The notes beneath the pieces were generated by a model. It made no database searches. It saw only the letters and a program-made list of their open reading frames with translations, and had not been told where the DNA came from. From positions 1 to 33,402 of the IMG/VR virus record IMGVR_UViG_3300038318_000158: a DNA stretch of 33,402 nucleotides; one strand, given 5' to 3'. The translations under genes were made by a program, and so were the position numbers. The first letter of the stretch is position 1. Each line of letters begins with the position of its first letter. Of the stretch, positions 5,588 to 7,405 are shown piece by piece. Origin of the DNA: a virus. Its lineage: Duplodnaviria > Caudoviricetes.

Positions 5588-5617
5588 AAAAAGACTAGCT
5601 ATTAAACTAGTCTTTTT
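5588..5617. terminator. intrinsic terminator, near copy of 5123-5158, overlapping the stop of the upstream gene
   Basis: AAAAAGACTAG-CTATTAAA-CTAGTCTTTTT. Confidence 0.8.
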
Positions 5618-5901
5618 AAATATTCATTTCTCTTTTTATATAAATACTTCTTTCTTTCAAGAATCTTAACACTTTTATCTTCAGTCAAAACTAATTTTAT
5701 TCTATCTTTACCCGCAAAGATTTTATAATTTTTATCACCTATAGATACAATTTCTACATCAGCTAACCAACCCGCAAATTTAATATCACTTTCTTTAAAT
5801 TCTTTTACTATTTCGTCTAGTATATTATTAAAATTAAAATAATCTATTTCATTATCTAACTTCAGTATTATCCATCTTCCTCCATTTTCATAATATCTCA
5901 T
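5602..5901 (-). CDS. orphan protein (99 aa, MRYYENGGRWIILKLD...) divergent from the CRISPR mini-array
   Basis: ORF track 5602..5925; ATG 5901 with AAGGAGGG RBS; own extended -10 (TG-T-TACAAT, 5933-5941) and terminator. Confidence 0.75.
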   Translation of the reverse strand: MRYYENGGRWIILKLDNEIDYFNFNNILDEIVKEFKESDIKFAGWLADVEIVSIGDKNYKIFAGKDRIKLVLTEDKSVKILERKKYLYKKRNEYLKRLV

Positions 5902-5913
5902 TTGAATCCCTCC

Positions 5914-5942
5914 TTGACAGAACATTTATTTTATTGTAACAT
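5914..5942 (+). promoter_or_regulatory. promoter for the mini-array, TTGACA-17-TAACAT
   Basis: Consensus -35 at 5914-5919, -10 at 5937-5942; no plus-strand ORF downstream. Confidence 0.65.
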
Positions 5943-5980
5943 ATAAGTAATTAATAGAAACAAAGTGTTGATGTAACAAA

Positions 5981-6067
5981 ATTTTAATAGAACTATATTA
6001 GAATGTAAATTTATATTTATGATCTATCAGCACTTTAGTTTCTAAACTTTAATAGAACCATAGTGGA
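5981..6067 (+). CRISPR. single-spacer CRISPR mini-array (type I-B-like 30-nt repeat, 35-nt spacer, truncated second repeat)
   Basis: R1 ATTTTAATAGAACTATATTAGAATGTAAAT (5981-6010); spacer 6011-6045; R2 ACTTTAATAGAACCATAGTGGA (6046-6067), 18/22 identical to R1. The GAATGTAAAT end resembles clostridial I-B repeats. Confidence 0.8.
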
Positions 6068-6068
6068 G

Positions 6069-6095
6069 ATACCCGCCTAGTTTGGCGGGTATTTT
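6069..6095 (+). terminator. intrinsic terminator closing the mini-array, possibly also ending the convergent operon
   Basis: ATACCCGCC / GGCGGGTAT stem with a T-run on plus. Confidence 0.75.
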
Positions 6096-6733: not shown

Positions 6734-7405
6734 TTATTTGTTCATTTCTATAGCTTCTTTTACTAAACTATCTAATGAATATCTAGTGTCTATAAAAGTT
6801 TTAGCACTTATTATTTCAGTTGCTATGACTTTTATAATTTCCTCTTTTGAATAATCGTAATAATATTCGTTCCATCTCCAATCTTCAATTTCTGCTAATC
6901 TTTTTAATTTTTCATCTCTTATTTTATTAGCCCATTTTACTTGTTTTTCTGAACCTTTTAACTCCGCAAGTTTTAACTTTTTTATTTTTTCTAATGCTTT
7001 TTCTGCCTTTTTTATGTTTTGTAGTAAAACTAATACACCTGTGCCTTTTTCAGCACTGTTGTCTATAAAGAATTTTGCACTTTCTATTTGTTTAACTTCT
7101 TCTATAGTTTCTTTTAATTCTTTAACTTCATCTTTGTTTCTTTCTATTGCTTTTTTATCAATCAAGCTAGTTATTATACTTTCTACTACTTCTATTTCTC
7201 TTTCAATACTAGCTATCATTTCTTTTCTTATGTCTTCAGCCCATTTTATTTGTTTTTCTGAACCTTTTAACTCTACCATTTTCTTCTCCTCCTTTGCTTC
7301 AAAGAGGAATGATAAACATAAACCGAATTGTGCTTGATAATCAACTTTGTATTCCTTTACAAACTTCCTTGTCATTTCATGAGCCTTTTTAAATAAATTT
7401 TTCAT
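6734..7405 (-). CDS. phage accessory protein with two ELKGSEKQxKWA repeats (anti-defence candidate)
   Basis: ORF track; strong RBS; first gene after a consensus promoter. Confidence 0.8.
   Translation of the reverse strand: MKNLFKKAHEMTRKFVKEYKVDYQAQFGLCLSFLFEAKEEKKMVELKGSEKQIKWAEDIRKEMIASIEREIEVVESIITSLIDKKAIERNKDEVKELKETIEEVKQIESAKFFIDNSAEKGTGVLVLLQNIKKAEKALEKIKKLKLAELKGSEKQVKWANKIRDEKLKRLAEIEDWRWNEYYYDYSKEEIIKVIATEIISAKTFIDTRYSLDSLVKEAIEMNK
6929..7273. repeat. 36-nt direct repeat pair (6929-6964, 7238-7273), 35/36 identical, 309 nt apart
   Basis: AGCCCATTTTA(C/T)TTGTTTTTCTGAACCTTTTAACTC. Confidence 0.9.

Follow-up and report, generated by a model that had tools for sequence, protein, structure and literature searches.

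The closest described relatives of the locus studied here are Cracr RNAs and arrays, a class described in 2023-2026 with 219 candidates, including type I-B ones, and with experiments in types V-A, I-E and I-F, according to the available part of the respective report (10.1101/2024.10.29.618823). As described there, Cracrs are viral, cas-less repeat-spacer units with a terminator that share at least 9 PAM-proximal nucleotides with a host CreR/CreA guide. They have a PAM-flanked partial target in a cas or creT promoter, and multi-guide versions are directed against variants of one subtype. Our locus and its relatives resemble them in these traits, with a target upstream of cas6 that is a putative promoter. 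Furthermore, type I-B mini-arrays are carried by the Clostridium phages c-st, phiSM101 and phiCp-D (Shmakov et al., PMC10120712, accessible sections). Here, the likeness covers a host mini-array upstream of cas6, a target with I-B PAM between the two and a common start of the host and phage spacers (first 15 nt). It extends to the order of full repeat, half repeat and terminator and to a neighbourhood with a gp25-family gene and an endolysin.

In the following, we investigate a viral DNA stretch of 33,402 nt (henceforth the window) that carries a small CRISPR-like cassette at positions 5914-6095 (+). Comparison with host genomes establishes cognate repeats, a host copy of the guide, a PAM-flanked target and host contact. 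From these we consider it quite likely that the cassette is a type I-B Cracr, which would silence the host cas promoter via a CreR/CreA-like guide.

The phage and its cassette

The window is a 33.4-kb virus record that encodes an integrase, a CI-like repressor, antirepressors, siphophage head and tail genes and an amidase endolysin (34/92 ORFs scanned, PHROGs). That is, judged by its genes, the phage is a temperate siphophage. The cassette is located in an accessory stretch with lysis genes on one side and the integrase on the other. No cas family was matched in the window (34/92 ORFs vs. PHROGs, 7 vs. Pfam), as had been claimed from the sequence alone. As with Cracrs, its carrier is a mobile element, and judged by the ORFs scanned the cassette does not belong to a CRISPR-cas locus. 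Elsewhere in the window, we observe an inverted repeat with perfect 21-nt arms close to the repressor region (2781-2801/3037-3057) and, downstream of the integrase, two direct copies of a 33-nt sequence (4885-4917/5089-5121), the latter being likely attP arm sites.

The original prediction proposed a unit of promoter, repeat, spacer, half repeat and terminator, and every part is found at the position given for it. A predicted sigma-70-type promoter (TTGACA at 5914-5919, 17 nt, TAACAT at 5937-5942) is followed by a leader, whose segment 5955-5973 is predicted by fold and duplex calculations to pair with spacer nt 15-34. The first repeat (R1; 5981-6010) is, by comparison with host arrays, a full 30-nt type I-B repeat with a small CTA-NNN-TAG stem. 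Within R1, Cas6 is predicted to cut at 6002/6003, which would leave an 8-nt 5' handle. The 35-nt spacer (6011-6045) consists of a targeting part (nt 1-17; 6011-6027), defined by its match to a host CreR/CreA spacer and a site upstream of cas6, and of nt 15-35 (6025-6045), where the host target match is absent beyond nt 17-19 and nt 15-34 are predicted to be leader-paired. The second repeat (R2; 6046-6067) is a 22-nt half repeat with the stem CCA-TAG-TGG and the predicted 3' handle. It agrees with R1 in 18/22 positions, with 17/22 at the next best position of the window. A terminator scan places an intrinsic terminator-like hairpin with T-rich tail at 6066-6095. A cut after repeat nt 22 yields handles of 8 and 22 nt, i.e., the sizes reported for CreA (Cheng 2021, PMC8501985, available part), and R2 retains exactly these 22 nt, in agreement with the proposed minimal layout for one crRNA.

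Both promoter hexamers are kept in a sister phage (provirus L002), and the -10 element is altered in one contig (X2). Taken alone, the promoter match is not above chance (18 sites in the window vs. 17.9 expected in shuffles), while terminators are (8 vs. 0.5 in shuffles). Rfam yields no match near a gathering score. Three features had escaped the original prediction: the complementarity of the leader to the spacer, the excess length of the spacer over its host counterpart and a divergent ORF that starts at 5901. The latter (5602-5901, -; henceforth P0001) encodes 99 aa, has an AGGAGG ribosome site and is a candidate anti-CRISPR.

By its resemblance to host arrays, R1 is a true CRISPR repeat. 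A degenerate R1 pattern occurs at 83 loci in species genomes, mostly in multi-copy arrays of Tissierellales (Tissierella, Anaerosalibacter, Sedimentibacter and relatives), with commonest repeat copies that agree with R1 in 24-29 of 30 positions. The genes adjoining matched arrays score as Cas6, Cas8b1, Cas7/Cst2, Cas5b and Cas3, and I-B cas genes are confirmed in three loci (L068, L066, L001). The predicted type I-B assignment is thereby supported by up to 29/30 identical positions to Tissierellales arrays beside cas6/cas8b1/cas7/cas5/cas3, and so is the suggested link of R1 to repeats of a Cas6 system. Of the matched copies, 4530 have T-A and 231 have C-G as repeat stem pair, and the two are never mixed, given a pattern that permitted mixed pairs and counts in which overlapping loci enter more than once. 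R1 and R2 each carry one of these two alternative forms. Among viral contigs, exact R1 is found in none and the degenerate repeat only in the record of L002.

Host spacers provide evidence on both PAM and contact. Matches with at most 8 mismatches to the window or to two sister phages are found for 32 of 2155 distinct host spacers, compared to 1/2155 for reversed controls. The 5' flanks for the 8 best spacers (at most 4 mismatches) are CCA (4), CCT, CCG, TCA and TGT (1 each), i.e., 6/8 are CCN. This PAM is seen in cassette orientation and bears out the orientation assumed at the outset. Both genomes that bear the target described below hold spacers with 3 to 5 mismatches to this phage group.

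In addition, Anaerosalibacter massiliensis has a separate four-repeat orphan array from a different repeat family (L138; G001:C8:154886-155115, -). Its first spacer matches window positions 6049-6085 in 37/37 nt with a 5' CCG flank, i.e., the half repeat and terminator of the cassette, and of the 3 spacers in this array, one more has a match in the window, with 7 mismatches. The lineage of this strain has thus met a phage with this cassette and, as read from the spacer match, A. massiliensis targets the putative anti-CRISPR RNA gene itself. The repeat family of the array is not found in 4 other genomes checked, and no cas genes are recognised among the ORFs within 17.6 kb. We also considered this spacer as a type III (RNA-targeting) guide and rejected this. 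Given the CCG flank and that no RAMP family is found in either host, a DNA-targeting type I reading is to be preferred.

The host guide copy and its target upstream of cas6

In type I Cascade pairing, every sixth position is flipped out, and the native guide-target pairs found here are consistent with this rule. Host loci were scanned with the seed of the phage spacer while ignoring every sixth position. The four top matches are all found in two loci, namely L068 (A. massiliensis) and L066, a MAG from the same six-genome family, within which no terminase was found. In each locus, one match is the 26-nt spacer between the degenerate repeat and the half repeat of a mini-array that is transcribed away from cas6. 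The other match is a CCA-flanked site, 115-130 nt from the mini-array and 267 or 234 nt before cas6. Both mini-array and target are located upstream of cas6-cas8b1-cas7-cas5-cas3.

Spacer nt 1-17 agree with the host CreR/CreA guide in 16/17 positions for the window (11 of them consecutive) and in 17/17 for L002. At least 9 PAM-proximal nucleotides are thus common to phage and host spacer, as in Cracrs. Compared to the CCA-flanked target, 15/17 positions match with mismatches only at 6 and 12, and pairing stops at nt 17 or 19, which gives the PAM-flanked partial target in the cas6 upstream region that Cracrs have. Variation of the seed across copies falls on position 12. Regarding the spacer search suggested originally, the host side is therefore positive with the two matches given, while phage and plasmid records are negative.

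The seed runs are 19 and 17 among 453 CCA/CCT sites of 27 distinct cas6-upstream regions. On these sites, a run of 17 is reached by 0/100,000 spacer shuffles and by 4 of 66,734 phage 35-mers, i.e., the spacer itself and three AT-rich stretches without handle. Among 401 genomes of the order, the pair of copy and target is confined to two (L068, L066). In the order-wide seed search, 18/22 matches are singles without handle or CCA/CCT, not above the reversed control (about 39), and the target is missing from the remaining four cas6 loci of both target hosts. A metagenome scan for handle plus seed gives 5 loci, 4 of them without repeat context. The remaining one is a host element, L131:43-65 (-), i.e., a host-type mini-array with the first 12 spacer nt in common that lies upstream of a cas6-like and a larger ORF in a different-looking cas locus. 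No CCA target is identified at this locus.

Candidate promoters overlap the target in both hosts but differ between L068 and L066, and the consensus-scan sites are not above shuffles. From its position, we take the target site to be the putative working promoter of the cas operon. The two loci show some further peculiarities. In L068 (8786-8805 and 8884-8918), the host target is an inverted, degenerate copy of the first repeat of the host element, and on the opposite strand this first repeat contains another 8-nt seed match with CCA flank. Guide and target may thus derive from a single repeat in L068, or there may be weak autoregulation. A gene of roughly 317 aa that looks by eye like an HTH-WYL regulator (L068:9000-9953, L066:9758-10708) is found upstream of the I-B operon in many loci, and a long palindrome is located just before cas6 in these I-B loci.

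CreR/CreA-like mini-arrays are found in 9/27 cas6-upstream regions with spacers of 18-30 nt, and 8/9 have a CCA target. The family comprises L001, L023 (by eye only), L041, L047, L056, L066, L068, L071, L088 and L093. In host CreR elements as well as in the mini-arrays of phiSM101 and phiCp-D, the second repeat ends at about the same point as R2. L066, L068, L047, L088 and L071 have long leaders in which we observe hairpins, a ribosome site and a short frame with ATA codons, and the ATA-containing mini-ORFs of these five are candidate bacterial CreT toxins. Such CreT-like features are least pronounced in L068 and L066 themselves, where they amount to 11 codons with one ATA or lack an ATG, and the host element in L068 and L066 may be either CreR or CreA. 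We found no characterisation of Tissierellales CreR/CreA elements in the literature searched.

Taken as a Cracr, the cassette would be expressed in the lysogen or on entry, and host Cas6 would process one crRNA-like RNA. The type I-B Cascade of the host would load this guide in competition with immune crRNAs. The guide would then steer Cascade to the CCA-flanked site before the cas6 operon, where the promoter is likely repressed without DNA cleavage. That is, by the published CreR/Cracr rule, a pairing stop at nt 17-19 would allow for binding but not for Cas3 cutting. The target promoter probably drives the cas operon and possibly also a CreT-like mini-ORF within the 234-267-nt leader.

Of the three functions that had been offered for the cassette, the CreR/CreA-like regulatory guide is the one favoured by the host copy and the PAM-flanked target before cas6. 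This does not hold for the other two. A weapon, for which no target in another phage is found, would use the full 35-nt guide to send host Cascade-Cas3 to a competing phage or plasmid for cutting. Its length fits, since most of the 2155 host immune spacers have 35-38 nt, and viral mini-arrays often target other viruses (PMC10120712, accessible sections). Still, no protospacer is present in phage or plasmid records, which are incomplete collections for this host group, and BLAST of the cassette against phages and plasmids yields repeat-level or chance matches only. Nine other viral matches to the 3' half of the spacer lack a seed match and fall in unrelated coding or intergenic sequence. Moreover, the phages hardly differ in this spacer, whose 5' half equals the host regulatory guide. 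We give the weapon next to no credence.

Predicted leader-spacer pairing, sister cassettes and neighbouring genes

The predicted fold of the cassette transcript has a z-score of -7.4 and 0/200 shuffles are as good. It is governed by 19 base pairs (17 Watson-Crick, 2 G-U; one bulged A) between leader 5955-5973 and spacer nt 15-34, i.e., a clamp on almost exactly the part of the spacer without targeting match. For the pieces left after the cut at 6002/6003, the predicted duplex energy is -23.1 kcal/mol, equalled by 0/1000 leader shuffles. The same clamp is predicted for L002 (z-score -7.5), and host elements show patchy upstream pairing only, which reaches -19.2 and -11.0 when longer windows are used and in part involves the repeat. 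No compensatory change is observed within the clamp because leader and spacer tail are nearly identical among the copies; there is a single U-A to U-G change. The leader segment also resembles a degenerate or decayed repeat, and the complementarity might thus be a by-product of such an origin. Beside the clamp, spacer nt 5-14 are complementary (including G-U) to the 3' end of R1 (window 5993-6024). The position-12 change weakens the respective hairpin in the window, and L002 and L066 have a stronger one.

The predicted clamp overlaps the target-pairing nt 15-17, and the 5' handle can, by prediction, fold onto seed nt 5-10; both could hinder loading. Speculatively, the most likely effect of the clamp would be to shorten the working guide to about 14-17 nt via limited Cas7 loading or trimming. 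A more specific variant states that the leader masks the PAM-distal half, such that a short Cascade would silence the cas/CreT promoter, be unable to recruit Cas3 and escape P0001, which would disable full-length Cascades. We regard this combination as rather doubtful. If true, it would be a type I-B counterpart of the AcrIF24-Cracr pair that is reached by RNA structure and not by spacer deletion.

The provirus L002 shares promoter, leader, half repeat and terminator with the window, and its spacer agrees in 34/35 positions. It carries, in addition, another repeat with a 19-nt guide, and the same form is found in run X3. This second guide agrees in 16/19 positions with the CreR of another host locus (L056), whose arrays hold spacers with 0 mismatches to this phage group. 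With the L056 target, it matches through nt 8 only and mismatches at 9. The module is absent from the contigs of a run labelled metatranscriptomic.

These relatives bear on a pure Racr-like decoy, for which the RNA would titrate Cas6/Cas7, the clamp would lead to an aberrant, non-targeting complex and the seed match would be a relic of its capture from host CreR. The cassette's own promoter and terminator and the absence of cas genes fit such a decoy, and clamp and handle-seed hairpin would leave few free seed bases. Competition, in turn, is part of Cracr action too. Racrs are, however, solitary repeats, while here two repeats of the processed type flank a guide, the seed is kept at all non-flipped positions in four independent copies (a decoy does not need a seed match) and the second guide of L002 copies a different host CreR. 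We therefore judge the pure decoy to be unlikely and retain silencing of the cas promoter by a Cracr.

Cassette and P0001 are exchanged as a block, i.e., record G403 and an X4 contig have the same neighbour gene with the block replaced, and an X11 contig shows the block joined to an L002-type neighbour. In G403, the alternative module at this site (L124:8889-10470) comprises a 244-aa and a 281-aa ORF, the latter being presumably serine recombinase-like. The promoters of cassette and P0001 are divergent and overlap (by eye). This joint mobility and the overlap would suit a self-switch, where guide-loaded Cascade would bind to the inverted copy at 5955-5987, in the leader DNA of the phage itself, and thereby control cassette and P0001 as in CreTA, with P0001 as a Cascade sensor. 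The leader agrees with the reverse complement of the whole spacer in 26/34 columns. Nevertheless, this self-match breaks down in the seed, with positions 4, 9, 14 and 15 mismatched besides 6 and 12, and has CTA instead of CCN as flank. Furthermore, none of the best self-matches in the window and two sister phages has a CCA/CCT-flanked seed run of at least 9, i.e., the PAM-flanked seed match in the adjacent gene's promoter that is typical for CreTA is missing. Finally, a P0001 homolog with 46% identity occurs without upstream mini-array, and the link between cassette and P0001 is thus not obligate. Altogether, a self-switch appears very improbable.

The P0001 family is small (14 representatives), and in 401 genomes it yields 2 weak matches inside 696-aa frames. 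P0001 has no Pfam, PHROG, PDB-sequence or Atlas match. Its first structure model (pLDDT 40) was unusable and the second reaches pLDDT 95; for this we find no fold match (none by Foldseek at E<=0.001; best VIA Z 3.8), which is no proof of a new fold. A neighbourhood of P0011 was looked for and not found. As a candidate anti-CRISPR, P0001 has a speculative role.

On its minus strand, the window also encodes a 223-aa ORF (6734-7405) with a perfect consensus promoter (7482-7454). It opens the operon near the cassette and is a homolog of phiCD38-2 gp25, i.e., the first gene of the acrIB2 operon. In phiSM101 and phiCp-D, too, a gp25-family gene adjoins the mini-array. By this guilt by association, gp25-family ORFs are possible markers of anti-defence operons. 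They show a conserved N-terminus of about 42 aa, then an internal ribosome site with ATG and then phage-variable sequence; the window homolog has an internal duplication. An assignment of the ORF to AcrIB2 itself was rejected, since it matches gp25, while the published AcrIB2 residues D92, E94 and E95 and the gene order fit gp27. No gp27-like gene is found among the neighbours.

Comparison with known systems

With host CreR/CreA elements, the cassette shares two divergent repeats that would yield 8-nt and 22-nt handles as well as the partial match to a, here putative, promoter (10.1101/2023.03.10.532045 and PMC8501985, available parts). Those elements are chromosomal parts of a CRISPR locus, whereas ours is a phage copy. 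Racrs are likewise phage RNA mimics that are processed by Cas6 and compete for Cas proteins (Camara-Wilpert et al., PMC10651486, as far as accessible), which is predicted here. Yet Racrs are single repeats that form aberrant Cas6-Cas7 subcomplexes and have no DNA target, whereas our cassette has a PAM-flanked target in the host and contains two repeats, or three in the case of L002. That is, neither the single repeat nor the absence of a targeting spacer that define Racrs applies to the cassette.

The phage mini-arrays of Shmakov et al. differ in their spacers, which have about 21-22 nt and are, in the accessible sections, 3 nt shorter than those of the host, while ours is longer. They furthermore show no long leader-spacer complement by eye and belong to another repeat family and host order, with Tissierell* and Anaerosalibacter occurring 0 times in the main text.

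Type I-B Cracrs have been predicted previously, and we found no tests of them in the literature covered, including the available part of the Cracr report (10.1101/2024.10.29.618823). Our phage may already be listed among its 219 candidates. What the locus provides is a complete, testable case of a probable type I-B Cracr, in which a phage guide is joined by its regulatory counterpart in the host, by a PAM-flanked target and by a spacer that proves contact of the host with the cassette. Contrary to the reported Cracr trend, where viral I-F spacers are shorter than those of the host (median 19 vs. 25 nt), our spacer is longer (35 vs. 26 nt). Further differences are that no known Acr is adjacent and that a leader clamp is predicted. 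Descriptions of leader-spacer pairing in such RNAs were not found in the literature searched, and the word 'leader' occurs 0 times in the main text of the Cracr report. If functional, the clamp would set the guide length of a type I Cascade by RNA structure in cis, which would be a new natural CRISPRi guide design. P0001 and the gp25-family neighbourhood, in turn, are a place to seek new I-B anti-CRISPR proteins. In summary, the cassette is of a known kind, and the clamp and the orphan P0001 set it apart as a variant.
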